DNA of 64,000 nucleotides from Eledone cirrhosa (lineage: Eukaryota). Below, piece by piece: positions 13,089 to 56,200 of this stretch (position 1 is its first letter; the number at the start of each line of letters is the position of its first letter). Location: the NCBI GenBank assembly GCA_964016885.1, contig OZ024741.1:91512001-91576000 (forward strand), read 5' to 3'. A program made the position numbers and the translations under genes. The notes under the pieces were generated by a model. That model had not been told where the DNA came from and searched no databases. It was given only the letters and a program-made list of their open reading frames with translations.

Positions 13089-16000
13089 AAAACTAACTGA
13101 AAAGAAATATTACCCAAGCTGTGAATAACTTTAAATTTGATTCTGACAGAACTTTGTCGTAACTTTTAAAGAAGATCATCGACTATTTTGAAAAATAAAT
13201 ACGAAATATTAGTGAATAGACGAACTCATCATGGCAAAAAGTACAAGTCTCCTTCGACCAAATCGCAACTACAGCCGTTGTACACAGTGGAGCTACGAGC
13301 TTAACAAAGTATTATATGAAGCATACAAACAATCTGAACCCCAACAGTTCGGTTTTATGCAAAGGCTAAAAACTTTATGGAACTCCAAACACCCAGAATT
13401 AGACTTTTCTCCAAAGCATTTAAATGAACAGGCAAAACGTATCATTAGATGTAAATTGATACATCTAACGGATTGAGTGATACTACAAATACAGCCCTTG
13501 TAGACAACCACCCCACCTCCACTGACAGACAAAGAGAATGGCCAGCTAAATCTAACAGTGAACAGCTCACCAACAATTTTGCTGAAATCCATCCCACTTC
13601 CACTGAAGAACAGCGAGAAAGGTCAGCTGACTCTAGTAGTAATTGTCACCACATCAACAACGAGGCTGAAATTCATGACTCTACTGTACAAACAGAGCAC
13701 CAAAAACTTGTGGGCACCCTACAAGTGATATGGAACGATATGTTTCAAGAGATACACAGCCTTAATGTGAGTGACAGACCATACAACACTAGAGTCAGTA
13801 AAGAACCCACTAAATTGGAATTGGAAGCGGTGAACGAAATAGCTGGCAATTATCTGAAGGCTATACGATCTAAAGGTGTAGAAACGACATTTGAAACGCT
13901 TAATGTTTTGTTATATGTTTCAGCTGTCACATTGCTATCATATAACACACATCTAAAACCACGCAATCAAGATACAAACAGAAAGCCTGAACCAGCGTGG
14001 ATGCGAAATTTAAAAACCAAAATGTTGTCCCTGAGACGAAGTATCTCACACATCGCAGTCGTTATGAAATGCAACATAGAGAGCAACTTCACACGACACC
14101 AGGAAGACCTAAAGAAAAAGTTAGAGAGACGATTTGGAGATACAAAATTTAAAACTTTGAACTCCAAATTACACCAGTTGAAACAACAACTGCTACAACA
14201 GAAAGACTAAAATATAAGTCAACAGCACATAAACGACAAGTGCTAAATAGATTGTTTGCCAGAGATCCTAAATCAGTTTATCGCAGCTTCGGTGGCAAAA
14301 GCTCAATCCCTGTAAACGACACTCCTTCAAAAGAACAGGTTGAGAGCTACTGGAGATCTGTATGGGAAACGGATGACGGATTCAACAGACAAGCTAATTG
14401 ACTAAAAGAACTGGAACAGGACTACTGCCAACATGTCCAGACAAAACAATATGACATAGATGGGTCAATACTGGAAACAGCTCTACAGAAAATGTCGAAT
14501 AGGAAATCACCAGGCCCAGACCTCATTACAGGATACTGGTTGAAGAATTTCACTTTCTATCGGCAAGATCTCATACGGCTGTTTACAGAAACCATTGAGG
14601 GCACACAAATACTGCCCAGATGGTTATCAACTGCCACTACTGTCCTCATTCCCAAAAATAGCCAAACCGCCCTTGCTAAAAATTACCGCCCAATTGCCTG
14701 CCAAAACATCATGTATAAATTATATACTGGGTGCCTTAACCAGTTCTTACAGGATCACTGTGCTACCAACAACATCATAACACCTGAGCAAGCTGGTGGA
14801 AAGAGGGAGGTGTGGGGTTGCATAGATCACCTACTAACTAACAAAATGATTCAGGAAAAAACAACAAAGAATCGCAGAAACATGACTGTAGTGTGGCTGG
14901 ACTATCAAAAAGCATTTGATAGTGTACCTCATGGGTGGATTATTAAGGCTTTACAGTTAGCTAAAGTCCCACAACCATTGGTAGCTGCTGTTGAACGCCT
15001 GACCAAGAACTGGTACACCAATTTGATCCTTAGAGGTGAGAAGGAGCAGGTTAAGACTGATAAGATACATTACCAGAAGGGCATCTTTCAGGGTGATAGC
15101 TTGTCAGTGCTACTCTTCGTTCTCTCACTGAATCCACTATCTTACCTACTCAGGAAACAAGGTGGACAAAGAAGTGGGCCCAGAAGTATCTCCCATCTTT
15201 TCTTTGTTGATGACCTGAAGTTGTATGGGCCAAATATCAATGACATCAAGAAACAATTGGACCTCATTACACAATTTTCAACCGACATCAAAATGAAATT
15301 TGGTGAGTCAAGTGTGCATATTTGGCAGTAAAACGTGGAAGAGCTGTGCCCTCCTCTAGAAATCTAGAGATGAACGGCCTGACAATACAACCTCTGCAAT
15401 CAGGTGACAACTACAGATATCTTGGACAGGATGAGAATGTCAGATATGATGGACCCATAAATAAGGAGAGAACCAGAACTGAATACCTCAGAAGAGTAAA
15501 GAAAATATGGTCATCAGAACTGTCAGCATACAACAAATACATTGCCCACAATACTTATGCTGTGCCAATTCTAACGCCAACATTTGGCCTACTGAACTGG
15601 TCATTGCAAGAACTAAGTGAGATGGATGTTAGAACTCGAAAACTTCTCAGTGTTACTGGCAACTTTAACATCAATGGTGATGTGGATAGGCTATACTTCT
15701 CACGCAAGGAAGGTGGCCGGGGTCTAAAATCAATATTAACAACATATGAGACCCGGATAGTAACACTGAAGCAACACCTTCAACAGAGGAAAAAGGTTGG
15801 CAACCATCTTGCCCAGGTTTATGAGCATGAAAAAAGAAATATCATTAGAATAGCGACTGATCTGGAGGAGAGATATGGAATAAAGCCTGATATAAATCTC
15901 TCACCCAGAGAAATCGGAAGATCCTATTCAATGTTCAAACAAGATAAGAAAATTGACCAACTTACAGAAAAAGTTGTGCATGGATACTTGAGGCGTAAAA

Positions 16001-16814
16001 CACAGACCATAGAGGGGATAAACCACTCAAAAAGCCTGGCATGGAGTTCCGACAAGTTTATGACATCACACCTTGAGGGATATCTCTATGCAATACAGGA
16101 ACAAGAACTCCCTACCAAATATCTTCTGCACAAAAGAGGAGGGCCAGCAGCTGACAATAAATGTAGGCTATGTAAAACAAAGATCGAGGATGTAAGCCAC
16201 ATTGTTGCCAGCTGCGAAAGAATGTCATCTCGCTACTACCTCCCCATGAGACACGATGGGATAGCTAGAACCATCTGGAACGCACTTCGGAAAACAAAAT
16301 TAACAACAAACGAGGAAGAATATATTGAGACAGATGGCACTAAGGAATACTGGTGGAACCTGAAAATAAAAACTGCCACCAAATTAAAGCACAACCGGCC
16401 TGATATTGTAGTTTGGGACCACACATTGAAAACGTGTTCTGTTGTGGAGATCAGCTGCCCACTTGATGTAAACGTTGTCAGAAAAATACAGGAGAAGGAG
16501 GACATCTACGGACCATTGATGAGGAGTTTACAAATCCAGTATCCAAGATACACCTTTAGCTTCATACCCATCATTATTGGAGCTACGGGTTATATACCAA
16601 CCCGCTTGGACCAAAGTATGACTGAACTTGGATTTGCGGACAAAAAGCGCAGCTCCCTAATTCATAGTCTGCAAATGGCTGCGATAGCTGGCACCTTCAA
16701 AATTTGCAAAACATTCTTGCGATTCAAGGGATGACAATTTCTTTTCTTTTACAACCTTGCCACCAGGAAGGTGGCCGCTCAAAAAAATATACTCAAAATT
16801 AAGAGAAAGAGAAA

Positions 16815-16815
<1 letters not shown>
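13089..16815 (+). mobile_element. Near full-length R4/Dong-clade RLE non-LTR retrotransposon in a (CATA)n/(TA)n array
   Basis: Single disrupted ORF with N-terminal Myb-like block, RT, CCHC and PD-type endonuclease; ~140-bp 5'UTR and ~80-bp 3'UTR ending GAGAAAGAGAAAA. Confidence 0.93.
13231..16734 (+). pseudogene. Disrupted RT/restriction-like endonuclease ORF of Dong copy 1
   Basis: Motifs [63 protein letters not shown]; apparent frameshift ~13470; versus copy 2: 4-nt deletion ~14191, TGG>TGA ~14399, 1-nt deletion ~15309. Confidence 0.92.
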
Positions 16816-16868
<53 letters not shown>

Positions 16869-19203: not shown

Positions 19204-20173
19204 AAACATTCATGTTTGGTTTAGATGTTAGAATGCAATCTATGCAGCTAGCTGGCCATTTGCCATAGGGATTGACTCGAAAACTCTGGTAATTGCGGGC
19301 GTTATTGAAGGATTCTGCTTTAGAGTTTTTATTTACAGTGTCCCCCACCCCATCTCGAGAAAGTGCGCGGATTAGTGGGTAGGATGTTCGGTTTGCGATC
19401 GTAAGTCGTGAGTTAGATTCCTGCACCGGGCAGCGCTATTTGTCATTTAACATTGTTTGTGTGTTTTTCAAATAGTAAGAATAATTTTTTGACGCTGTAA
19501 TTGTGTTAGGTTGAAAGCATGGTCTCAGATAAAGTCACTTCCCAGACAAGTACAACAGTGGCTAAAATAGCACTTTCTCAATGTAATTTACTTTTGTTTA
19601 ACAGTCTCAGATTAAGTCACTTGCTTGGCAAGTACACGCCCACCCCTCAACCTCCTCCCCCCAAAACAACAAAAAACAATGTTATTCTCATAAAAAACAA
19701 ATGTTATGAAAATATGTTATATCTTTCAATACAGTTAATTCATGCTGAAGATCGCATACTTCTGTAATTACAAATATTTGTTGTAAGTTTATATTATCTT
19801 TACTTTATAGTTATTTATTTATAATTATTTATGACAGTTTTACAGCTGACAAAATGACAGCAATTTTCCTTCATCTTTTTTTAGCCGTAACTTTTCTTTT
19901 CCTTTCGCAAAGAAGCAAATGTTGACAACTAGTCATAAATGATTACACGCCTAAATCAACCCGACAGTCACTTGAATTTTTAAAATCGTGTTTATTTTTG
20001 GTATGTTATTATATTGTTATTTATTGCCATGCTACTACTATGCAATAATAGACTTGCTGAAATCTCTAGTGGAGAAAATTGCTTCATTATGTATTTACCA
20101 TTAAGATAGCTCAAGAAATAGACGGATATATTAGATAGCTAGAAAGGTAGATAGATAGACACACACACACACA

Positions 20174-20859
20174 ATATATATATAGATATATAGATATAGA
20201 TATATAGATATATATATATATATATAGATATATATATATAGATATATATATATAGATATATATATATAGATATATATATAGATATATATATATAGATAGA
20301 TATATATAGATAGATATATATAAATATATAGATATATATATATATATATATATATATAGATATATATATATATATAGATATATATATATATATATATAGA
20401 TATATATATATAGATATATATATATATATATATAGATATATATATATATATAGATATATATATATATATAGATATATATATAGATATATATATATATATA
20501 GATATATATATATATATAGATATAGATATATATATAGATATATATATATATATAGATATATATATATATATAGATATATATATATATATAGATAGATATA
20601 GATATATATAGATATATATAGATATATATATAGATATATATAGATATATATATATATAGATATATATATATATATATATATATAGATATATATAGATATA
20701 TATATAGATATATATAGATATATATATATATAGATATATATATATATATATAGATATATATATATATATATATATATAGATATATATATATATATATAGA
20801 TATATATATATATAGATATATATATATATATATATATATAGATATATATATATATATAT

Positions 20860-20892
<33 letters not shown>

Positions 20893-20919
20893 TATATATA
20901 TATATATATAGATATATAT

Positions 20920-21016
<97 letters not shown>

Positions 21017-21145
21017 TATATATATATATATATATATATATAGATATATATATATAGATATATATATATATATATATATAGATATATATAGATATATATA
21101 TATATATAGATATATATAGATATATATATATATATAGATATATAT

Positions 21146-21184
<39 letters not shown>

Positions 21185-21283
21185 TATATATATATATATA
21201 TATAGATATAGATATATATATATATATATATAGATATATATATATATATATATATATATAGATATATATATATATATATATAT

Positions 21284-21372
<89 letters not shown>

Positions 21373-21799
21373 TATATATATATATATATATATATAGATA
21401 TATATATATATATAGATATATATATATATATAGATATATATATATATATAGATATATATATATATATAGATATATATATATATATAGATATATATATATA
21501 TATAGATATATATATATATATAGATATATATAGATATATATATATATATAGATATATATATATATATATATATATAGATATATATATATATATATATAGA
21601 TATATATATATATATAGATATATATAGATATATATATATATATATATAGATATATATATATAGATATATAGATATATAGATATATATATATATATAGATA
21701 TATATATATATATATAGATATATATATATATATATAGATATATATATATATATATAGATATATATATATATATATATATAGATATATATATATATATAT

Positions 21800-21866
<67 letters not shown>

Positions 21867-22005
21867 TATATAGATATATATATATAGATATATATATATA
21901 TAGATATATATATATATATATATAGATATATAGATATATATATATAGATATAGATATATATATATATATAGATATATAGATATATAGATATATATATATA
22001 GATAT

Positions 22006-22038
<33 letters not shown>

Positions 22039-22404
22039 TATATATATATATATAGATAGATATATATATATAGATATATATATATATATAGATATATATA
22101 GATAGATATAGATATATATATATATATAGATATATATATATATATAGATATATATATATATATATAGATATATATATATATATAGATATATATATATATA
22201 TAGATATATATATAATATATATATATATATAGATATATATATATATATAGATATATATATATATATATAGATATATATAGATATATATATATATATATAG
22301 ATATATATAGATATATATATATATAGATATATATATATATATAGATATATATAGATATATATATATATATATATATATATAGATATATATATATATATAT
22401 ATAT

Positions 22405-22463
<59 letters not shown>

Positions 22464-22668
22464 TATATATATATATATATATATATAGATATATATATAT
22501 ATAGATATATATATATATATATATATATAGATATATATATATATATATATATAGATATATATATATATAGATATATATATATATATAGATATATATATAT
22601 ATATAGATATATATATATATATAGATATATATATATATATAGATATATATAGATATATATATATATAT

Positions 22669-22701
<33 letters not shown>

Positions 22702-23104
22702 TATATAGATATATATATATAGATATATATATAGATATATATATATATATATATATAGATATATATATATATATAGATATATATATATAGATATATATAT
22801 AGATATATATATATATATAGATATATATATATATATATATATAGATATATATATATATAGATATATATATATATATAGATATATATATATATAGATATAG
22901 ATATATATATATATATATATATAGATATATATATATATAGATATAGATATATATATATATATATATAGATATATAGATATATATATATAGATATAGATAT
23001 ATATATATATATAGATATATATAGATAGATATAGATATATATAGATATATATAGATATATATATAGATATATATAGATATATATAGATAGATATAGATAT
23101 ATAT

Positions 23105-23141
<37 letters not shown>

Positions 23142-23158
23142 TATATATATATATATAT

Positions 23159-23209
<51 letters not shown>

Positions 23210-23226
23210 TATATATATATATATAT

Positions 23227-23299
<73 letters not shown>

Positions 23300-23320
23300 T
23301 ATATATATATATATATATAT

Positions 23321-23415
<95 letters not shown>

Positions 23416-23613
23416 TATATATATATATATATAGATATATATATATATATAGATATATATATATATATATAGATATATATATATATATATAGATATATAT
23501 ATATATATAGATATATATATATATATAGATATATATATATATATAGATATATATATATATATAGATATATATATATATATATATAATATATATATAGATA
23601 TATATATATATAT

Positions 23614-23650
<37 letters not shown>

Positions 23651-23995
23651 TATATATATATATATAGATATAGATATATATATAGATATATATATATATA
23701 TATATAGATATATATATATATATATATATATAGATATATATATATATATAGATATATATATATATATATATATATATAGATATATATATATATATATATA
23801 TATAGATATATATATATATATAGATATATATATATATATATAGATATATATATATATATAGATATATATATATATATATAGATATATATATATATATAGA
23901 TATATATATATATATATAGATATATATAGATATATATATAGATATATATAGATATATATATATATATAGATATATATATATATATAGATATATAT

Positions 23996-24034
<39 letters not shown>

Positions 24035-24041
24035 TATATAT

Positions 24042-24082
<41 letters not shown>

Positions 24083-24113
24083 TATATATATATATATATA
24101 ATTATATATATAT

Positions 24114-24178
<65 letters not shown>

Positions 24179-24259
24179 TATATATATATATATAGATATA
24201 TATATATATATAGATATATATATATATATAGATATATATAGATATATATATATATATAT

Positions 24260-24304
<45 letters not shown>

Positions 24305-24356
24305 TATATATATAGATATATATATATATATAGATATATATATATATATATATAGA

Positions 24357-24397
<41 letters not shown>

Positions 24398-25458
24398 TAT
24401 ATAGATATATATAGATATAGATATATATATATATATATATATAGATATATAGATATATAGATATATATATATATAGATATAGATATATATATATATATAG
24501 ATATATATATATATAGATATAGATATATATATATATATAGATATATATATATATATAGATAGATATATATATATAGATATATATATATATATAGATATAT
24601 ATATATATAGATATATATATATATATAGATATATATATATATATAGATATATATATATATATATAGATATATATATATATATATAGATATATATATATAT
24701 ATAGATATAGATATATATATATATAGATATATATATATATATAGATATATATATATATAGATATAGATATATATATAGATATATATAGATATAGATATAT
24801 ATAGATATATATATATATATATAGATATAGATATATATATATATAGATATATATATATATATATAGATATATAGATATATATATATATATATATAGATAT
24901 ATATATATATATATAGATATATATATATATATATAGATATATATATATATATATATAGATATATATATATATATAGATATATATATATATATATAGATAT
25001 ATATATATATATATAGATATATATATATATATATATAGATATATATATATATAGATATATATATATATATATATATAGATATATATATATATATATATAT
25101 AGATATATATATATATATATATATAGATATATATATATAGATATAGATATATATATATAGATATATATATATATATAGATATATATATATATATAGATAT
25201 ATATATAGATATAGATATATATATAGATATAGATATATATATAGATATATATATATATATAGATATAGATATATATATAGATATATATATAGATATATAT
25301 ATATATATAGATATATATATATATATAGATATATATATATATATAGATATATATATATATATAGATATATATATATATATAGATATATATATATATATAG
25401 ATATATATATATATATAGATATATATATATATATAGATATATATATATATATATATAT

Positions 25459-25505
<47 letters not shown>

Positions 25506-25780
25506 TATATATATATATATAGATATATATATATATATAGATATATATATATATATATATATAGATATATATATATATATAGATATATATATATATATAT
25601 AGATATATATATATATATATAGATATATATATATATATATAGATATATATATATATATATAGATATATATATATATATAGATATATATATATATATAGAT
25701 ATATATATATATATAGATATATATATATATATATAGATATATATATATATAGATATATATATATAGATATATATATATAT

Positions 25781-25813
<33 letters not shown>

Positions 25814-25968
25814 TATATATATATATATATATATATAGATATATATATAGATATATATATATAGATATATATATAGATATATATATAGATATAGATATAT
25901 ATATATAGATATATATATAGATATATATATATATAGATATATATATATATAGATATATATATATATAT
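20174..25968. repeat. ~5.8-kb (TA)n array punctuated by GA units
   Basis: Direct reading; interruptions are almost all T>G on the + strand. Confidence 0.97.
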
Positions 25969-26420
25969 TTAGAAACACACAGATACATGCGGACACACAC
26001 ATATATACATGAATGCATCCGCACCCAACTGTGAGTTAAGGGTGCCAACTTCACCGATGTTGCTCAATGAATGACTGGGACAGACTCACAGTTGGGTGCG
26101 GATGCATTCATGTATATATGTGTGTGTCCGCATGTATCTGTGTGTTTCTAAATATATTAATAACTCCCTCTGGTCGAGCAATCTTTGAAGTGTGGGGACA
26201 ACTGGAAAGCTTCCATTACTCATACTTCTCGCCTTCTTCACTACCTCTTCTGCGGCCTCGATGTGAATACCCCCTCCGCCTCCGTGGTATTTTCTTCGTG
26301 GTTATAAGAGGCTTAGCTCCGTTTCTCGACCGTTATATCGCGTGACTGTCTCCCCCTCCGCCTTTTGGGATTCTTTCTCGCGTCGTGTAGACGCGTTCTT
26401 GAGACTAGTAAAATGAGGTA

Positions 26421-26508
26421 TCCTCTTGATAAGTCGGCAGACCTCGCAAGGACTCTATATCTTTGATATATTGTTTTTGTTTATGCCACGAAACTACGTA
26501 GTCGAGGA
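26421..26508 (+). ncRNA. Type I hammerhead with U3-A8 core variant, copy 1
   Basis: TCCTC-TTGATAA-GT(C)GGCA..TGCCAC-GAAA-CTACGTAG-TC/GAGGA. Confidence 0.72.
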
Positions 26509-27011
26509 ATTTAGGAACAGTTTAGGTATGATACATTTTATTACTAATTATATCTAAATGTTTCTTCTCTCTTCATAATGTATTTTTAACTCTGATACTG
26601 GTTCAGTCTGGTTCAAACTGAATTAGTCTGTCCCAGTCATTCATTGAGCAACATCGGTGAAGTTGGCACCCTTAACTCACAGTTGGGTGCGGATGCATTC
26701 ATGTATATATGTGTGTGTCCGCATGTATCTGTGTGTTTCTAAATATATTAATAACTCCCTCTGGTCGAGCAATCTTTGAAGTGTGGGGACAACTGGAAAG
26801 CTTCCATTACTCATACTTCTCGCCTTCTTCACTACCTCTTCTGCGGCCTCGATGTGAATACCCCCTCCGCCTCCGTGGTATTTTCTTCGTGGTTATAAGA
26901 GGCTTAGCTCCGTTTCTCGACCGTTATATCGCGTGACTGTCTCCCCCTCCGCCTTTTGGGATTCTTTCTCGCGTCGTGTAGACGCGTTCTTGAGACTAGT
27001 AAAATGAGGTA

Positions 27012-27099
27012 TCCTCTTGATAAGTCGGCAGACCTCGCAAGGACTCTATATCTTTGATATATTGTTTTTGTTTATGCCACGAAACTACGTAGTCGAGGA
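27012..27099 (+). ncRNA. Type I hammerhead with U3-A8 core variant, copy 2
   Basis: Identical to 26421-26508. Confidence 0.72.
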
Positions 27100-27169
27100 A
27101 TTTAGGAACAGTTTAGGTATGATACATTTTATTACTAATTATATCTAAATGTTTCTTCTCTCTTCATAA

Positions 27170-27424
27170 GATATATATATATATATAGATATATATATAT
27201 ATATAGATATATATATATATAGATATATATCTATATATATATATATAGATATATATATATATATAGATATATATATATATATATAGATATATATATATAT
27301 AGATATATATATATATATAGATATAGATATATATATAGATATATATATATATATATAGATATATATATATATATATATAGATATATATATATATAGATAG
27401 ATATATATATATATATATATATAT

Positions 27425-27477
<53 letters not shown>

Positions 27478-27809
27478 TAGATATATATATATATAGATAT
27501 ATATATAGATATAATATATATAGATATATATATATATATAGATATATATATATATATATAGATATATATATAGATATATATATAGATATATATATAGATA
27601 TATATATATAGATATATATATATAGATATATATATATATAGATATATATATATATATATATATATATTTAGATATATATTATATAGATATATATATAATA
27701 TCTATATATATATATAGAGAGATATAGATATATATATCTATATATATATAGAGAGAGATATAGATATATATATCTATATATATATAGAGAGAGATATAGA
27801 TATATATAT

Positions 27810-27897
<88 letters not shown>
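27170..27897. repeat. TA/GA array ending in (AG)n
   Basis: Direct reading. Confidence 0.97.
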
Positions 27898-35936: not shown

Positions 35937-36062
35937 AATATATATATATAAATAAATATATATAAATAAATATATATATATAAATATATATATATAAATA
36001 AATATATATAAATAAATATATATATATAAATATATATATATAAATATATATATATAAATATA
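35568..36062. repeat. (TA)n/TAAA array
   Basis: Direct reading. Confidence 0.95.
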
Positions 36063-36370
36063 AATTGAAACAAAATGAAAACGAAATTTCATTTCTCACT
36101 CTTAGTATGGCACTTACTTAAATGTAAGTATGCATGTACACGTACATACATATATGTATACAGACGTACAGTAGCATGCACATATATATATATATATATA
36201 CATATATATATACATATGCATACAGGTACACATACATATATGCACGTATCAGTTTAGCGGCGCTTATTATAACGTCGCTTTGTTCGTTTGTAAACAAACT
36301 GAACAGCCTGAATTTATGCCATACGGTGTTAAGGCAACCACGTCACCTTTTTGTTCAACACTGACACAGG

Positions 36371-36415
36371 AACGATGTACTAGTTTCAAGCTTGTTAGCT
36401 ATCATCAGCACCGTT
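36371..36415 (-). ncRNA. Minimal type I hammerhead
   Basis: Minus strand AACGGTG-CTGATGA-TAGCtaacaaGCTT-GAAA-CTAG-TA/CATCGTT. Confidence 0.8.
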
Positions 36416-36652
36416 TACCCATCTGTCAGATAGTTGAACGTTCGAAAGTATATACTTTCCTTATGAAAATTAACGGCTGAGCAGCCTAATTTGCATATTG
36501 AGTGAGTTAAATCGGTCAGGCATACCGAAAACGATAAATTGAAACAAAATGAAAACGAAATTTCATTTCTTACTCTTAGTATGGCACTTACTTAAATGTA
36601 AGTATGCATGTACACGTACATACATATATGTATACAGACGTACAGTAGCATG

Positions 36653-36693
<41 letters not shown>

Positions 36694-36846
36694 GCATACA
36701 GGTACACATACATATATGCACGTATCAGTTTAGCGGCGCTTATTATAACGTCGCTTTGTTCGTTTGTAAACAAACTGAACAGCCTGAATTTATGCCATAC
36801 GGTGTTAAGGCAACCACGTCACCTTTTTGTTCAACACTGACACAGG

Positions 36847-36891
36847 AACGATGTACTAGTTTCAAGCTTGTTAGCTATCATCAGCACCGTT
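36847..36891 (-). ncRNA. Minimal type I hammerhead (second unit)
   Basis: Identical to 36371-36415. Confidence 0.8.
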
Positions 36892-38265
36892 TACCCATCT
36901 GTCAGATAGTTGAACGTTCGAAAGTATATACTTTCCTTATGAAAATTAACGGCTGAGCAGCCTAATTTGCATATTGAGTGAGTTAAATCGGTCAGGCATA
37001 CCGAAAACGATAAATTGAAACAAAATGAAAACGAAATTTCATTTCTCACTCTTAGTATGGCACTTACTTAAATGTAAGTATGCATGTACACGTACATACA
37101 TATATGTATACAGACGTACAGTAGCATGCACATATATATATATATATATATACATACATATATATATACATATGCATACAGGTACACATACATATATGCA
37201 CGTATCAGTTTAGCGGCGCTTATTATAACGTCGCTTTGATCGTTTGTAAACAAACTGAACAGCCTGAATTTATGCCATACGGTGTTAAGGCAACCACGTC
37301 ACCTTTTTGTTCAAAATCAAAATCAAAATCAAACTTAAAATCAAAATCAAAATTAAAATACATTCGGCAGATAACACAGATAATGCAAGAGGATAGTTTG
37401 ATAGTCAGGTATAGTAGGTAGTGTATGCGTTAGTTACACGTGGAGCATGCAAATGTGTCTCATTTTTATACTATTATTGTGTGGGCGGCTGTTACACGTA
37501 ATGCAAGCACTTTAAGCGGGTAAGCAAGATTACTATGGTGGTTGTAGTGGTAAGGTATTTTTTGTATAGAACGAAAAAAGTATGTGTGCAGAAAAATAAA
37601 AATAAAAAGAAGCAAAAGAAAGTTATGGTTTTCGTATCCACCATCATTTTCACATTCAGAAATAGTAAGAGATAGTTTCTACATCCATCACATATGTAAC
37701 GATGATTCCGTATTGAATGTTTGATGCATTAAAATAAATTATTTTAGCGTATTGAGGCTCAGTGTTATTTAATCCAAGTTTATAGAATAGGTTGATTCTG
37801 CTGCGAGAATTTACAGCGGTTTATTACCCGGAAGTATGTGTGTAATTAAGGGGAGGTAATGCGTAAGAGGAGGTAACTAGCCGAATCTCATAACTAAATT
37901 CATTGTTCTAACATACATTCTAAAGGGCCTCAATTGAGTCCCTTATATAGACGGTTATACATTTATATCTAGTTTCCAATTTTAAATACAGTCTACTCTA
38001 TCATGATGTACTAAAGGTATCTATATTAAGTTGATTACTCCCTATTATATAGTGCTACAATTGAATATTCCATACAAAGTGCCATACCTTTATATCAAAG
38101 TTCACTGTAAATGCAGTCTACTCTTAGAACATATCAGGGGACCTATTAGAATTTTGTCTACATAACCCCTGGCAAGTTATGGAGCAGCGTATGGCTGTTT
38201 GCATGGCAAAACAAAATACATCTCTAGGGCAGACAAATACATCCCTCAATCTGGCAGGAAGGTAT

Positions 38266-48050: not shown

Positions 48051-48185
48051 CGTAGATACATATATATATATACATACATACATATTTATATATATACATA
48101 CATATTTATATATATACATACATACATATATATATACATACATACATATATATATACATACATACATATATATATATACATACAT

Positions 48186-48667
48186 ATGGCACTAAGGAAT
48201 ACTGGTGGAACCTGAAAATAAAAACTGCCACCAAATTAAAGCACAACCGGCCTGATATTGTAGTTTGGGACCACACATTGAAAACGTGTTCTGTTGTGGA
48301 GATCAGCTGCCCACTTGATGTAAACGTTGTCAGAAAAATACAGGAGAAGGAGAACATCTACGGACCATTGATGAGGAGTTTACAAATCCAGTATCCAAGA
48401 TACACCTTTAGCTTCATACCCATCATTATTGGTGCTACGGGTTATATACCAACCCGCTTGGACCAAAGTATGACTGAACTTGGATTTGCGGACAAAAAGC
48501 GCAGCTCCCTAATTCATAGTCTACAAATGGCTGCGATAGCTGGCACCTTCAAAATTTGCAAAACATTCTTGCGATTCAAGGGATGACAATTTCTTTTCTT
48601 TTACAACCTTGCCACCAGGAAGGTGGCCGGTCAAAAAAATATACTCAAAATTAAGAGAAAGAGAAAA
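48186..48667 (+). mobile_element. R4/Dong element copy 3, heavily 5'-truncated
   Basis: Near-identical to 16334-16815; flanked by CATA arrays. Confidence 0.93.
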
Positions 48668-48865
48668 CATACATATATATAGATATACATACATATATAT
48701 ATACATACATACATATATATACATATATATACATATATATACATAATATATATACATACATACATATACATACATACATACATATACATACATACATACA
48801 TATACATACATACATACATATACATATATATACATACATACACATATATATACATACATACATAT

Positions 48866-49060: not shown

Positions 49061-49606
49061 ATGGTGGCTGCCAACTCGTTTTCGAGTACGGCCACTACTA
49101 TATATCCATGTAGGAGAACCCCTACCGATGCGCTGAACGAGTGTGATATTTTAGTCCAGCCAGCGACTTGAAAACTCTGGTACAAACACTACACTTGTGA
49201 CAATTATTGACACATTGTGCTGGGCCCATGGTACCATGTGACGACAAGTGCAGAGAGATCTCCAGATATAAAGCAATGCCTGTGCCGTGAAGCTTTTATA
49301 GTGAGCAAAGGCACTGCACAAAGCCAGTCCCACTCTCTTAACCAAGATGATATTTACCAAAAAGAAGAACAAGTCAACATCATTGGATACCATCAGAGTT
49401 TCAGGTGTTATATCAGTTTTCCTGCTCCTAGAATTCTGCCTTGACAAAGGCTAAGGGGTCATCTCTCCCGGTGATTTTGGATTGCCATTGACTTTAAGAG
49501 CTCCTTTGCCCTTTGACAGGTTTTGTTTTTAGTCCTGCAGGATGTCCAGAGTCACCCTCCAGTTTAGTAGCCAACGACCCGACCATGAGACAGGTTGTAC
49601 TGGGAT
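49061..49606 (-). mobile_element. Non-autonomous RTE derivative, copy 4
   Basis: Homologous to copies 1-3 with a small internal deletion; CATA arrays on both sides. Confidence 0.8.
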
Positions 49607-49647
49607 ATATATACATACATACATACATACATACATACATACATACA

Positions 49648-49677
<30 letters not shown>

Positions 49678-49678
<1 letters not shown>

Positions 49679-52600
49679 GACAGACCATACAACACTAGAG
49701 TCAGTAAAGAACCCACTAAATTGGAATTGGAAGCGGTGAACGAAATAGCTGGCAATTATCTGAAGGCTATACGATCTAAAGGTGTAGAAACGACATTTGA
49801 AACGCTCAATGTTTTGTTATATGTTTCAGCTGTCACATTGCTATCATATAACACACATCTAAAACCACGCAATCAAGATACAAACAGAAAGCCTGAACCA
49901 GCGTGGATGCGAAATTTAAAAACCAAAATTTTGTCCCTGAAACGAAGTATCTCACACATCGCAGTCGTTATGAAATGCAACATAGAGAGCAATTTCACAC
50001 GACACCAGGAAGACCTAAAGAAAAAGTTAGAGAGACGATTTGGAGATACAAAATTTAAAACTTTGAACTCCAAATTACACCAGTTGAAACAACAACTCAC
50101 AGCTACAATAGAAAGACTAAAATATAAGTCAACAGCCCATAAACGACAAGTGCTAAATAGATTGTTTGCCAGAGATCCTAAATCAGTTTATCGCAGCTTC
50201 GGTGGCAAAAGCTCAATCCCTGTAAACGACACCCCTTCAAAAGAACAGGTTGAGAACTACTGGAGATCTGAATGGGAAACGGATGACGGATTCAACAGAC
50301 AAGCTAATTGGCTAAAACAACTGGAACAGGACTACTGCCAACATGTCCAGACAAAACAATATGACATAGATGGGTCAATACTGGAAACAGCTCTACAGAA
50401 AATGTCGAATAGGAAATCGCCAGGCCCAGACCTCATTACAGGATACTGGTTGAAGAATTTCACTTTCTATCGGCAAGATCTCATACGGCTGTTTACAGAA
50501 ACCATTAAGGGCACACAAGAACTGCCCAGATGGTTATCGACTGCCACTACTCTCCTCATTCCCAAAAATAGCCAAACCACCCTTGCTAAAAATTACCGCC
50601 CAATTGCCTGCCAAAACATCATGTATAAATTATATACTGGGTGCCTTAACCTGTTCTTACAGGATCACTGTGCTACCAACAACATCATAACACCTGAGCA
50701 AGCTGGTGGAAAGAGGGAGGTGTGGGGTTGCATAGATCACCTACTAACTAACAAAATGATTCAGGAAAAAACAACAAAGAATCGCAGAAACATGACTGTC
50801 GTGTGGCTGGACTATCAAAAAGCATTTGATAGTGTACCTCATGGGTGGATTATTAAGGCTTTACAGTTAGCTAAAGTCCCACAACCATTAGTAGCTGCTG
50901 TTGAACGCCTGAGCAAGAACTGGTACACCAATTTGATCCTTAGAGGTGAGAAGGAGCAGGTTAAGACTGATAGGATACATTACCAGAAGGGCATCTTTCA
51001 GGGTGATAGCTTGTCAGTACTACTCTTCGTTCTCTCACTGAATCCACTATCTTACCTACTCAGGAAACAAGGTGGACAAAGAAGTGGGCCCAGAAGTATC
51101 TCCCATCTTTTCTTTGTTGATGACCTGAAGTTGTATGGGCCAAATATCAATGACATCAAGAAACAATTGGACCTCATTACACAATTTTCAACCGACATCA
51201 AAATGAAATTTGATGAGTCCAAGTGTGCATATTTGGCAGTAAAACGTGGAAGAGCTGTGCCCTCCTCTAGAAATCTAGATATGAACGGCCTGACAATACA
51301 ACCTCTGCAGTCAGGTGACAACTACAGATATCTTGGACAGGATGAGAATGTCAGATATGATGGACCCATAAATAAGGAGAGAACCAGAACTGAATACCTC
51401 AGAAGAGTAAAAAAAATATGGTCATCAGAACTGTCAGCATACAACAAATACATTGCCCACAATACCTATGCTGTGCCAATTCTAACGCCAACATTTGGCC
51501 TACTGAACTGGTCATTACAAGAACTAAGTGAGATGGATGTTAGAACTCGAAAACTTCTCAGTGTTACTGGGAACTTTAACATCAATGGTGATGTGGATAG
51601 GCTATACTTCTCACGCAAGGAAGGTGGCCGGGGTCTAAAATCAATATTAACAACATATGAGACCCGGATAGTAACACTGAAGCAACACCTTCAACAGAGG
51701 AAAAAGGTTGGCGACCATCTTGCTCAGGTTTATGAGCATGAAAAAAGAAATATCATTAGAATAGCGACTGATCTGGAGGAGAGATATGGAATAAAGCCTG
51801 ATATAAATCTCTCACCCAGAGAAATCGGAAGATCCTATTCAATGTTCAAACAAGAAAAAAAAATTGACCAATTTACAGAGAAAGTTGTGCATGGATACTT
51901 GAGGCGTAAAACACAGACCATAGAGGGGATAAACCACTCAAAAAGCCTGGCATGGAGTTCCGACAAGTTTATGACATCACACCTTGAGGGATATCTCTAT
52001 GCAATACAGGAACAAGAACTCCCTACCAAATATCTGCTGCACAAAAGAGGAGGGCCAGCAGCTGACAATAAATGTAGGCTATGTAAAACAAAGATCGAGG
52101 ATGTAAGCCACATTGTTGCCAGCTGCGAAAGAATGTCATCTCGCTACTACCTCCCCATGAGACACGATGGGATAGATAGAACTATCTGGAACGCACTTCG
52201 GAAAACAAAATTAACAACAAACGAGGAAGAATATATTGAGACAGATGGCACTAAGGAATACTGGTGGAACCTGAAAATAAAAACTGCCACCAAATTAAAG
52301 CACAACCGGCCTGATATTGTAGTTTGGGACCACACATTGAAAACGTGTTCTTTTGTGGAGATCAGCTGCCAACTTGATGTAAACGTTGTCAGAAAAATAC
52401 AGGAGAAGGAGGACATCTACGGACCATTGATGAGGAGCTTACAAATCCAGTATCCAAGATACACCTTTAGCTTCATACCCATCATTATTGGTGCTACGGG
52501 TTATATACCAACCCGCTTGGACCAAAGTATGACCGAACTTGGATTTGCGGACAAAAAGCGCAGCTCCCTAATTCATAGTCTACAAATGGCTGCGATAGCT

Positions 52601-52726
52601 GGCACCTTCAAAATATGCAAAACATTCTTGCGATTCAAGGGATGACAATTTCTTTTCTTTTACAACCTTGCCACCAGGAAGGTGGCCGGTCAAAAAAATA
52701 TACTCGAAATTAAGAGAAAGAGAAAA
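49678..52726 (+). mobile_element. R4/Dong element copy 2, 5'-truncated
   Basis: Highly similar to copy 1 from ~13772 onward; flanked by (CATA)n. Confidence 0.95.
49679..52645 (+). CDS. Uninterrupted but 5'-truncated RT + CCHC + RLE ORF (no native start)
   Basis: Open frame with all RT and RLE motifs; the ORF-track start at 49595 runs through upstream repeat DNA. Confidence 0.85.
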
Positions 52727-52758
52727 CATATACATACATACATACATACATACATACA

Positions 52759-52794
<36 letters not shown>

Positions 52795-52813
52795 TACATA
52801 TATATATACATAT

Positions 52814-53233: not shown

Positions 53234-56200
53234 ATGATGGCTGCAAACTCTGCCAAGAGTATTGCAATCGCATGTCAGATTCAGATGTGGGACGCTCGGA
53301 TATGGCTTTTTAACCCTGCTAGAGACTTGCACTCCTTCACACACTGACGACAACTATGGATCTCCCTGGCTTGAGGTCCTGCGCCAGGTTGCCCGTGAAC
53401 CCTCGCAACACCGTGGATATCATATTTCACTGGTTCTCTTTGAACATGGCTGCGACTGTGGCTCCTGAGACCAGATTTGCTCAAGCAAATGTTTCCACAC
53501 TCAGGACACTTCAATTCAATGGAGACACCCATCATTTCGAGAGATACACCAGGGCATTGCTTACGCACATCCCGTTTGATCTTATCGTGCTCTATGCGTC
53601 TGTCCTCAAACTTATGGACCCCATCATTCGCCATTCCACGCCAAATCTCTCTTTCAAGAGCTTCTATCTCCGAGTCAGCCATCATCAAACCAGTTTTGTT
53701 TTCAATGTGTCCTTTACACAATCCTTGAATCGGAGCTTTGGCTTGTGAGGTGGTCTCTTACCCTCACAAAGCTCGCCATACAAGAGTTGTTTTGGGATTC
53801 GATCATCCTCCATTCTGCAGAGGTATCCGGTCCATCGCAAACACCGTTGGTGGATGATACTCTCAATGCTACGAAACTCACTTCTCTCAACATAACTCAC
53901 ATGCATCTGCCACTTGATACCTAGCATCTTTCTGAGACACTTGCTGGTGAAACCATTCCAGTCTGTGGATATGCCGTTTGTAGGCAACCCATGTCTCACA
54001 TGCATACAGCAAAGCTGGCAGTACACATGCAGCATACACTCTCACCTTGGTCCTTATTGTGATTCCTCGCCTGCACCAAAGACGGTCGTTGAGCCTTCCA
54101 AATGACTCACTTGCCTTACTAACACGCAGACCAACTTCCGCATCCAGAGAGCAGGTCACACTCAGAGTACTCCTCAAATACACAAATGTGTCAGCAGCCT
54201 TCAGCTTTTGACCGTATACGTGTATGGAGGGTTCATTGAAAACTTTATCCAGAGCAGGTTGGTACATGACGACAGTCTTCTTCAGACTGATTGTCAGTCC
54301 CAAAGCACTGCACGCATTGGAAAAAGAATCCATAAGGTGTTGCATGTCACTCTGGGAGTGTGCAAAGAGATCACAATCATCTGCATATAAAAATTCTCTG
54401 ATCAAGGTACTCAGTACCTTAGTGTTGGCAGTGAGACGCCTAAGGTTAAACAGCCTGCCGGAAGTGCGATCTCTGAGATAGATACCGTGTTGACAATCTT
54501 TGAAGGCCACGAAGAACACCTTCGCGAAATACAAGGCAAACAAAGTCGGTGTAGGTATATCACCCTGCTTGACACCATTTTCAACCGAGATTGGCTCAGA
54601 CAGATTACCTCCAACATTCACTCATGCCTGCATGCCATTGTGGAAGAGTTTCAGAATGTTCACAAACTTTTCAGGACAGCCCAATCTCTCCAAAATAACC
54701 GACAAAGCCTTCCGATTAACGGTCTCAAATGCCTTGGTCAGATCGACAAAAACTTGGTATAAGTCCATGCGCTGCTCAATGCATTTCTTTTGAAGTTGTT
54801 TGGCCGAGAAGATCATGTCAACAGTGCCTCTGCCATTCCTAAAGCCACATTGGGACTCAGGAAGTACCTCAACAGCAATGTGCTCTATCAATCTGTCCAA
54901 CAATATCCTGCACAAGATCTTCCCAGCCACAGATAGCAGTGAGATACCTCTGTAGTTGCCACAGTCATCTTTGGCTCCCTTTCCTTTGTAAAGTACCACC
55001 ATAAATACATCTTTCCAATCCTATGGCACATCTTCATTCCAAACATTCACAAAGAGATCAGTGAGGCGGTTTAAGAAGTTATCACCAGCACACTTGAAAA
55101 TCTCGGCACTCAGTCCATCCATTCCAGGTGACTTGCCGCTGTTTAATTTGGCAATGGCCTTCGCCACCTCACCAAATGAAGGAGGATCAGGCATTGCCAG
55201 CCTTGTAGGTCTGGATGGAATCAACCGGATGAACTCATCATCAATTGGTGATGGTCTGTTGAGAAGCTCATCAAAGTGGTCATGCCACCTGATCAGGATT
55301 TCCTTCGGATGTCTGAGCAATTCCTTGCCGTCCCTGGAGCGAAGTGGTGATATTTGTGAACCGGTCGGACCATACACCTCCCTGAGCAGACTGTATAGGA
55401 GTTTGTATCATGTCTATCTGAGGCCTTCTGGATTTCATCAGCCTTTTGGCTCCACCAGGTATCCTGCATGGCTCTCAATCGATGTTGCACAGGTGCCTTG
55501 ATCTGCCTGAAGGTCCGGTCACTTCCGCCAGAACGTGTCTCACACAACAATGACGTCAGCAATTCCCCCTTACTTTGGGCTTCACAACAAATTGAAACTT
55601 GGCGCTTCAGACGATGATCAGTCCAACATTCCGCGCCTCGCAATACACGAACCAACGCGATATCCCTGATATCACGTTTTCTCATTAAAACGAAGTCAAT
55701 AAGGTGCCACTTCTTGGAACCTGGATGCATCCAAGTTGTCTTATATTTGTCTTCTGCTGAAAGAGCGTGTTCCCAACAACAAGATCCATCTCAGTGCACA
55801 TCTGCAACAGAAGTAGGCCATTGTTATTGCACTTACCTACTCCATGCCTGCCCATCACACTCCAAGCTTCCCAGTCATTACCAACACGTGCATTAAAATC
55901 ACCAAGGATGACAATCTTGTCTGCATAAAGTATACCATGGATGACCTCTCTCAAAGACATGTAGAAACTTAGTTTTTCATCATCACTGGCACACATAGTA
56001 GGAGCGTACACACTGACCAGAGTCACAAAGCGGTTTTGAATCAGAGGAACTCTCATGGACATTATCCGATCATTGAATCCACAAGGAAGATTTTCCAGCT
56101 TTGAGACGATTGCAAATGCGACCCCTGCCTCTCTCCTATGACCCTATGCTCCACCACTCCAATAGAAGGTATATCCTCCCTTCTGTTCTGTGAATTGACC

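Follow-up and report, generated by a model that had tools for sequence, protein, structure and literature searches.

A tandemly repeated, ORF-less 591-nt unit with a predicted U3-A8 hammerhead in Eledone cirrhosa: a probable retrozyme copied by Penelope-like machinery

The locus of interest lies in a 64,000-nucleotide stretch of the Eledone cirrhosa genome (contig OZ024741.1, forward strand, positions 91,512,001–91,576,000; hereafter, the window). It is a young, two-armed insertion of a 591-nt unit that contains no ORF and is present in high copy number in the 2,996-Mb genome. In the reading that we consider probable, the unit is a retrozyme: a protein-free 591-nt tandem repeat carrying a U3-A8 hammerhead motif, copied by the reverse transcriptase (RT) and endonuclease of a Neptune-type Penelope-like element (PLE). 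The locus is a variant of the known animal retrozymes, and not an autonomous PLE. The class, the U3-A8 core and the Penelope link are already in print; the additions made here are a long tail with ends predicted to pair, and a peak of junctions at the predicted cut site.

Anatomy of the insertion

An earlier, sequence-only reading of the window had described direct repeats that define an ORF-less unit of 591 nt. Closer analysis agrees: the period of the direct repeat is exactly 591, with positions 26084–26578 equal to 26675–27169 (495 nt, 100% identical), and the longest ATG-initiated ORF in the circularised 591-nt monomer encodes 75 aa. The motifs, coordinates, period and palindrome given by that reading stand, while the inverted arm at 25963–26086 was missing from it, and the Penelope-type anatomy of the insertion (two-ended and inverted) went unrecognised. 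The two hammerheads, being identical copies within the 495-nt perfect repeat of a single insertion, amount to one observation. The features of the locus are as follows.

20132–25967, unstranded: left flank, (TA)/(TAGA) microsatellite of 5.8 kb; target site
25963–26086, minus strand: inverted arm, 124 nt, unit 47–170; 100% identical to reverse-complemented 26625–26748; its 3' end is fixed end E2, against (TA)n
26084–27169, plus strand: direct arm, 1,086 nt (1.84 times the 591-nt unit), with 5' truncation at unit position 97; its 3' end is fixed end E1
26303–26308, and again 26894–26899, plus strand: TATA-like box TATAAG, ~120 nt upstream of the hammerhead
26421–26508, plus strand: predicted type I hammerhead, copy 1; helix I 26421–26425/26504–26508, core UUGAUAA 26426–26432 (U3 26426, A8 26431), helix II 26433–26489, GAAA 26490–26493, palindrome 26493–26502, cut base C17 26503
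26504–27094, plus strand: predicted cut-to-cut monomer, 591 nt, non-coding
26579–26748, plus strand: tail between E1 (after 26578) and E2 (about 26743–26750), 165–170 nt
27012–27099, plus strand: predicted type I hammerhead, copy 2, identical to copy 1; U3 27017, A8 27022, C17 27094
27171–27897, unstranded: right flank, (TA)n and then (AG)n microsatellite

Unit positions are numbered from window position 26579 (unit 1) to 27169 (unit 591), placing the predicted cut between units 516 and 517. Judged by motif, the TATAAG boxes are a possible candidate for an internal promoter. No clear pile-up of transcription starts was seen in unit 335–363, where such a signal is not separable from TA microhomology, and a scan for sigma-70 promoters, a model irrelevant to an animal genome, stayed at chance level. 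In the left-flank microsatellite, G occurs on the plus strand only.

The window contains several other repeats. A young non-LTR retrotransposon is present in three copies on the plus strand (49589–52800, 13455–16865 and 48172–48745), with RT and zinc-finger domains and a 1,018-aa frame; the copies are 97.9% and 95.6% identical and have (CATA)n flanks, and there are 4,394 exact matches to the 3' end in the genome. We take the C-terminus of the 1,018-aa frame to resemble a restriction-like endonuclease of the R2/R4 type. Positions 53887–56143 (minus strand) contain a broken LINE whose RT and APE-like endonuclease are spread over several frames. Finally, a 476-bp tandem repeat (36060–37314; 2.6 copies, 98% identical) contains hairpins as well as a (TA) tract; inspection by eye showed no hammerhead core in it, and 20 nt of it match the flank of one retrozyme copy (L034).

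A predicted type I hammerhead in each unit

The motif starts with TCCTC-TTGATAA (at 26421 and 27012) and closes with GAAA-CTACGTAG-TC-GAGGA (26490–26508 and 27081–27099), within which ACTACGTAGT makes a perfect 10-nt palindrome (26493–26502 and 27084–27093). This layout, the palindrome and the position of C17 (26503 and 27094) are all where the sequence-only reading had placed them. The boxes UUGAUAA and GAAA and the GUC site are those of a type I hammerhead, with a Watson-Crick pair between U3 and A8; three helices surround the core, helix I being open, and 91.8% of cells are paired across 30 distinct copies. Helix II (57 nt) has closing G-C and U-A pairs, a bulged C, 4 bp, and inner stems of 8 bp and 6 bp. 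Folding prediction places the active fold at −21.5 kcal/mol and the minimum free energy at −22.6, a gap of 1.1, and gives a central helix I pair probability of 0.76. The circular 591-nt monomer has a strong predicted fold (z −6.8, 25 shuffles), in which the hammerhead is not in its active shape.

Searches with Rfam at E values up to 10 gave no hammerhead match at the locus itself (26300–26620, 321 bases); for the whole window, the 150 matches listed, out of 206, likewise include no hammerhead. The expectation that a CTGANGA-based search would miss the family is borne out: in this genome, CUGANGA descriptors and Rfam overlook at least about 5,900 motifs, plus several autonomous families.

U3-A8 across the family

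A 24-nt core pattern in which positions 3 and 8 are free has 5,922 matches in the genome, and its reversed control has none. U3 is present in 5,911 of the 5,922, and the other 11 all keep A8; among the 100 core matches listed, 99 are U3-A8 and one is U3-G8. A search for a C3-G8 sister with the same palindrome returned no match genome-wide, where the equivalent gapped pattern gave 462 for U3-A8. When C3-G8 was instead sought through the start of helix II, there was one match (itself without helix II) against five in the control. Longer forms of helix II were found in 462 matches, mostly from older subfamilies; the older unit, measured in one copy, is 598 nt long and ~81% identical to the window unit, and keeps U3-A8.

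Older loci also provide a view of helix I, which the search pattern left unconstrained (the core was fixed by the pattern). In 30 copies, one helix I pair is UA in 20, UG in five, CG in four, and something else in one. The covariation score was matched in 1 of 500 shuffles, and the other four of the five measures were not above shuffles; the clear compensatory helix I pair (four copies) may be a single event.

The U3-A8 pair is fixed in the family, and is not decay. The sequence-only reading had proposed that the double change was selected rather than decayed, and that positions 3 and 8 be tabulated throughout the genome. In the matches tabulated, the copies are neither mostly C3-G8 nor mismatched. 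The "not decay" half of the proposal survives; the rest is not supported as stated, the two positions being fixed rather than covarying within the family.

Autonomous Penelope-like families in the same genome

The genome contains 10,597 GIY-YIG candidates, of which 150 were scored and 50 loci were read, yielding six families (A, B, C, C2, D and E). A CX4CxxC linker, tied to Neptune and to microsatellite bias (PMC8557442, in part), and a C-terminal endonuclease are found in A, B, C, C2 and D; family E is without the linker. Families A, D and E were confirmed to combine RT with GIY-YIG. Hammerhead-like motifs are U3-A8 in A, C, C2 and D, and C3-G8 in B and E (called by descriptor in A, and by eye in the remaining five); the family C motif has GCAA in place of GAAA, and family D copies vary.

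As the U3-A8 pair occurs in four of the six autonomous families, the swap was probably inherited; being common to autonomous Penelope-like families of the genome, the double change does not originate with this element, and a Neptune lineage is its likely source. The core also has precedents elsewhere. A U3-A8 descriptor was used as early as 2014, with about 1,300 matches in PLEs of Schistosoma mansoni (PMC4209133, in part), and natural U3-A8 hammerheads, along with earlier in-vitro activity, have been reported (PMC3088659, in part).

Family A has three features in common with the 591-nt unit: the U3-A8 pair, the placement of E1 about 76 nt downstream of the cut, and a terminal TTTCTAA. Its copies are about 97% identical and include an intact 938-aa frame (G000:C1:145872308-145875121, minus strand); at this locus (L111, G000:C1:145868500-145878000), two U3-A8 hammerheads 4,979 nt apart flank the frame in what is apparently a full-length Neptune-type element. 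On these weak grounds, family A would be the best candidate for the mobiliser. Homology to the unit is absent from the 50 GIY-YIG loci, bar one separate insertion and low-complexity matches, and the 18 nt that match close to a 3' end in family C2, considered as a link to a parent, proved to be a pyrimidine tract. We infer that the mobiliser is most likely a Neptune-type PLE, albeit one with no sequence match to the unit among the 50 loci.

The unit is not alone in its organisation. A looser pattern (71 matches, most of them to this one family) detected a second non-autonomous U3-A8 family, G, with a unit of about 290 nt (L162–L191, e.g., G000:C1:219448321). Family G has its own helix I and helix II, a different perfect 10-nt palindrome and a long stem extending helix I; it sits in (TA)n, with two ends about 34 nt apart.

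Two fixed ends, one per arm

Copies of the 591-nt family are embedded in (TA)n; they consist of tandem arms, to which an inverted one is often added. The 3' ends of the arms meet (TA)n at two places, E1 (unit 591 to 5) and E2 (about unit 170), which lie 165–170 nt apart. Exact E1-(TA)n junctions number 2,628 in the genome. The first 100 of these provided a sample of arms, from which two duplicates and one locus-edge copy were dropped. An inverted partner arm is present in 58 of the 97 E1 copies kept, and is E2-ended in 54 of the 58; no E1/E1 copy was seen, and two of the remaining four two-armed copies resolve to E2 from overlapping loci. In an overlapping set chosen by the core, the E1/E2 rule holds in 26 of 28 cases. 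The window insertion also has one end per arm, with E2 on the inverted and E1 on the direct arm.

One fixed end per arm (54/58) points to priming from both target strands, at one site each. Autonomous families A, C and D display the same two-end pattern, with ends 66, 39 and 38 nt apart, respectively. A partial tandem, an inverted 5'-truncated arm and two fixed 3' ends, the anatomy of a Penelope-mobilised insertion, are all present in the 591-nt family. By analogy, the two fixed ends fit two-strand priming by a Neptune-type RT: for the Poseidon element of anole, it has been shown biochemically that two internal RT start sites define a tail, and that both target strands are cut and extended (PMC11167929, in part).

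The tail in the window (26579–26748) is predicted to form a multibranch domain (z −6.4, 200 shuffles) closed by a 10-bp helix between E1 and E2. Pairing of the two ends is predicted in the window and in one older copy, in a different register and with both strands AU-rich. Among the families compared it is confined to the 591-nt family, with none predicted in A, C, D or G; in eight further older loci, the search pattern found no usable copy. We treat the E1:E2 helix, as a functional feature, as a lead only.

Two side observations concern the arms. Firstly, 14 of 160 arm 5' ends cluster at unit 92–105 (window 26670–26683), within a hairpin loop, likely through fold-back joining or RT stalling; E2 arms of 69–71 nt also recur. 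Secondly, at L174/L175, G000:C4:341452721 and C9:26650067, helix II deletions are common to both arms, or to the tandem units, of one insertion, which suggests that the deleted variants themselves served as template.

5' junctions at the predicted cut site

The position of the cut had been fixed beforehand by the sequence-only reading. We searched for 5' ends abutting an A/T run of 9 nt, in the ~25 nt that precede unit 525; the pattern sees only junctions of this kind. It gave 112 matches, of which 100 were listed and 95 were unique, and these were tallied by hand. Among the matches listed, 26 of the 95 junctions in this 26-nt stretch fall on two adjacent positions, 11 at unit 517 and 15 at unit 518 (two of the latter being one local duplicate), with 1, 2, 0 and 1 at 516, 515, 514 and 513. 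A script run on 62 loci, selected because the hand tally had placed them at 508–520, returned the same counts at 517 and 518.

Unit 517 is without TA microhomology. At 23 comparable positions ending in G or C, drawn from the cut stretch and a control stretch (71 unique junctions among 72 matches, counted by hand), junctions average 1.9, with a maximum of 7; the probability of at least 11 at unit 517 is 0.001 (negative binomial). Other peaks are 7 at unit 511 and, in the control, 10 at 335 and 14 at 347, the last two at A/T-ending microhomology. The excess at the cut site is only about 20 copies, or, by rough inference, of the order of 1% of passes.

The pile-up gives the predicted cut site independent support. 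It hints at cleavage in vivo, with circles or partly cut multimers as templates; RT stalling may be an alternative source of the peak. Sixteen arms with a 5' end at 517/518 could be scored for length: 10 stop on the first pass, and six had already crossed 1–3 intact sites, so that either partly cut linear multimers also acted as templates, or circles were opened. The six later-pass arms are explained by partly cut linear multimers no less well than by circles.

Arm lengths and read-through

Most passes continue beyond the predicted cut site, which is crossed by 91 of the 97 E1 arms, by 38 of them twice or more, and by two of them five times. Arms have a mean length of 635 nt, for which an exponential distribution is not rejected (KS p 0.23), and arrays reach about 5 units per arm. 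Spacing across the cut site is exact, without any indel, in 265 of 265 internal junction copies (some counted twice). This argues against template jumping between cut linear monomers, a route that we considered and disfavour. Units diverge by 0.45% within an arm, by 0.37% between arms and by 2.0% between insertions (41 loci). Read-through and near-identical arms are consistent with repeated copying round a ligated circle, or with uncut multimers of uniform sequence.

Two contigs from public runs, X1 and X5 (621 and 620 letters, the unit plus 30, the shape of a cycle), were rejected as evidence for circles. Low-level genomic DNA explains X1: the unrelated 4,394-copy retrotransposon of the genome is present at the same depth (7.2 vs 7.8). 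X5 is without a control contig, and so uninformative. Among 24 public runs, none was listed as holding the unit in RNA, a result with no bearing on whether it is expressed.

Explanations for the insertions

A retrozyme copied by a Neptune-type PLE would generate insertions in five steps. These are (i) transcription of tandem copies, (ii) cutting by the hammerhead after C17, likely helped by dimers formed through the 10-nt palindrome, (iii) ligation of monomers, likely into circles, with linear, partly cut forms alongside, (iv) nicking of both (TA)n strands by a GIY-YIG endonuclease, upon which the DNA ends would prime at E1 and E2 of the same template variant, and (v) copying over lengths distributed roughly exponentially, to a maximum of about five units, with head-to-head joining of two cDNAs creating the inverted arm. 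A few linear cut templates would leave 5' ends at unit 517/518. In-vitro results published for related elements count against this scheme: eight of nine Xenopus retrozyme dimers were uncleaved (bioRxiv 10.64898/2026.07.22.740005, in part), minimal hammerheads of PLEs cleave weakly (PMC4209133, in part), and the anole hammerhead is dispensable for insertion (PMC11167929, in part).

The same element and mobiliser could also do without a circle, if the templates were linear, uncut or partly cut multimers transcribed from a few long master arrays. Such multimers would suit the six of 16 cut-site arms with intact sites downstream and the existence of five-unit arrays, and unprocessed RNA is the main substrate of the anole element in vitro (PMC11167929, in part). 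However, the mean arm is about one unit long, meaning that ordinary copies could not template the longest arms, and none of the loci read, a small fraction of the family, contained a long master array. The distribution of arm lengths is consistent with stopping at a constant rate, and the region in which starts might be expected to accumulate (unit 335–363, confounded by TA microhomology) gives no clear signal. On balance we regard an exclusively linear route as unlikely, though deserving of some weight.

A third explanation is that the hammerhead is an inactive passenger, inherited from a Neptune pseudo-LTR (pLTR), and that the peak at 517/518 stems from RT stalling at helix III or from a repair bias. 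U3-A8 is indeed common to the autonomous families, about 99% of passes read through the site, the motif is not in its active shape in the predicted circular fold, and many metazoan retrozymes are inactive in vitro (8/9; bioRxiv 10.64898/2026.07.22.740005, in part). Yet the peak coincides with bases 1 and 2 of the predicted 3' cleavage product, and positions 516 and 515, where a helix III stall would be expected, have one and two junctions. Helix I pairing is kept through U-A, U-G and C-G pairs, and the separate family G retains U3-A8 and a perfect palindrome of its own. We find an inactive passenger improbable.

We consider it very unlikely that the copies stem, as truncated fragments of a pseudo-LTR, from an autonomous PLE yet to be discovered: insertion anatomy is the same as in autonomous PLEs, most copies of which are 5'-truncated (PMC8557442, in part), but successive units are joined head to tail every 591 nt and contain no ORF, the PLE ORF pieces in 14 of 261 element-bearing loci come from several different families, and the E1 arms listed end in (TA)n, a partner arm or short unassigned sequence.

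Comparison with known systems

The family resembles metazoan non-LTR retrozymes (PMC7229834 and bioRxiv 10.64898/2026.07.22.740005, both in part) in consisting of tandem non-coding units with one type I hammerhead each, dispersed in thousands of copies (here 5,922 cores and 2,628 E1 junctions) without LTR-type structure or a protein of its own. Further similarities are a GC content under 50%, a palindromic helix III that allows dimers, and a proposed Penelope origin, the last argued for retrozymes in the bioRxiv source. The 591-nt unit compares with expressed RNAs of ~170–400 nt (PMC7229834) and with units of 51–972 bp (bioRxiv 10.64898/2026.07.22.740005). The U3-A8 core and the 57-nt helix II set the present family apart, as do inverted arms combined with two fixed ends, insertion into (TA)n and cut-site junctions, which do not appear in the portions of the two sources drawn on here. 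Expression and circles have been demonstrated for metazoan non-LTR retrozymes; for this family they are predictions.

The hammerheads of the Schistosoma mansoni Cercyon PLEs (PMC4209133, in part) have the same core swap, a helix I of 4–5 bp and an enlarged helix II, and they too occur in opposite-strand pairs, 100–700 bp apart. Cercyon motifs are heterogeneous, mostly single and have a minimal helix III; those described here are homogeneous, tandem and non-autonomous, with a 10-nt palindrome.

With Neptune and Poseidon PLEs (PMC8557442 and PMC11167929, both in part), the family shares partial tandems accompanied by an inverted copy that is truncated at its 5' end, a tail delimited by two RT start sites, AT-rich or microsatellite targets, and a hammerhead upstream of the start sites. 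In contrast to these elements, the 591-nt unit contains neither an RT nor a GIY-YIG ORF, and so lacks the coding frame that an autonomous PLE has between its pseudo-LTRs. Its tail of 165–170 nt is four to five times the published 30–40 nt, and compares with 34–66 nt in families A, C, D and G.

Significance

Our search of the open literature, by way of its listings, turned up neither this family, nor a long tail with paired ends, nor junctions that accumulate at cut sites; PLE consensus sequences, from octopus among others, and lists of hammerheads may appear in supplements, beyond the reach of that search. The function of hammerheads in PLEs has been called unclear (PMC8557442, in part), and for the anole element no RNA-seq reads ending at the cut site were found (PMC11167929, in part).

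With its thousands of young copies, two fixed ends and junction peak, the 591-nt family makes cleavage, and the choice between circle and multimer, questions that can be addressed by counting in a genome; the 591-nt template makes both testable in vitro. Taken one step further, and tentatively, the insertions may be a fossil record of a Penelope cycle: a self-cut, ligated 591-nt circle, with RT start sites that are separated by 165 nt of sequence but face each other across an AU-rich helix, on which a dimer of Neptune RT would prime from both target strands and roll in both arms, and of which rare cut templates would end at C17. We hold this fuller picture to be possible rather than probable. 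If true, it would provide in-vivo evidence of cleavage by a U3-A8 hammerhead, and of circles as an intermediate in transposition.
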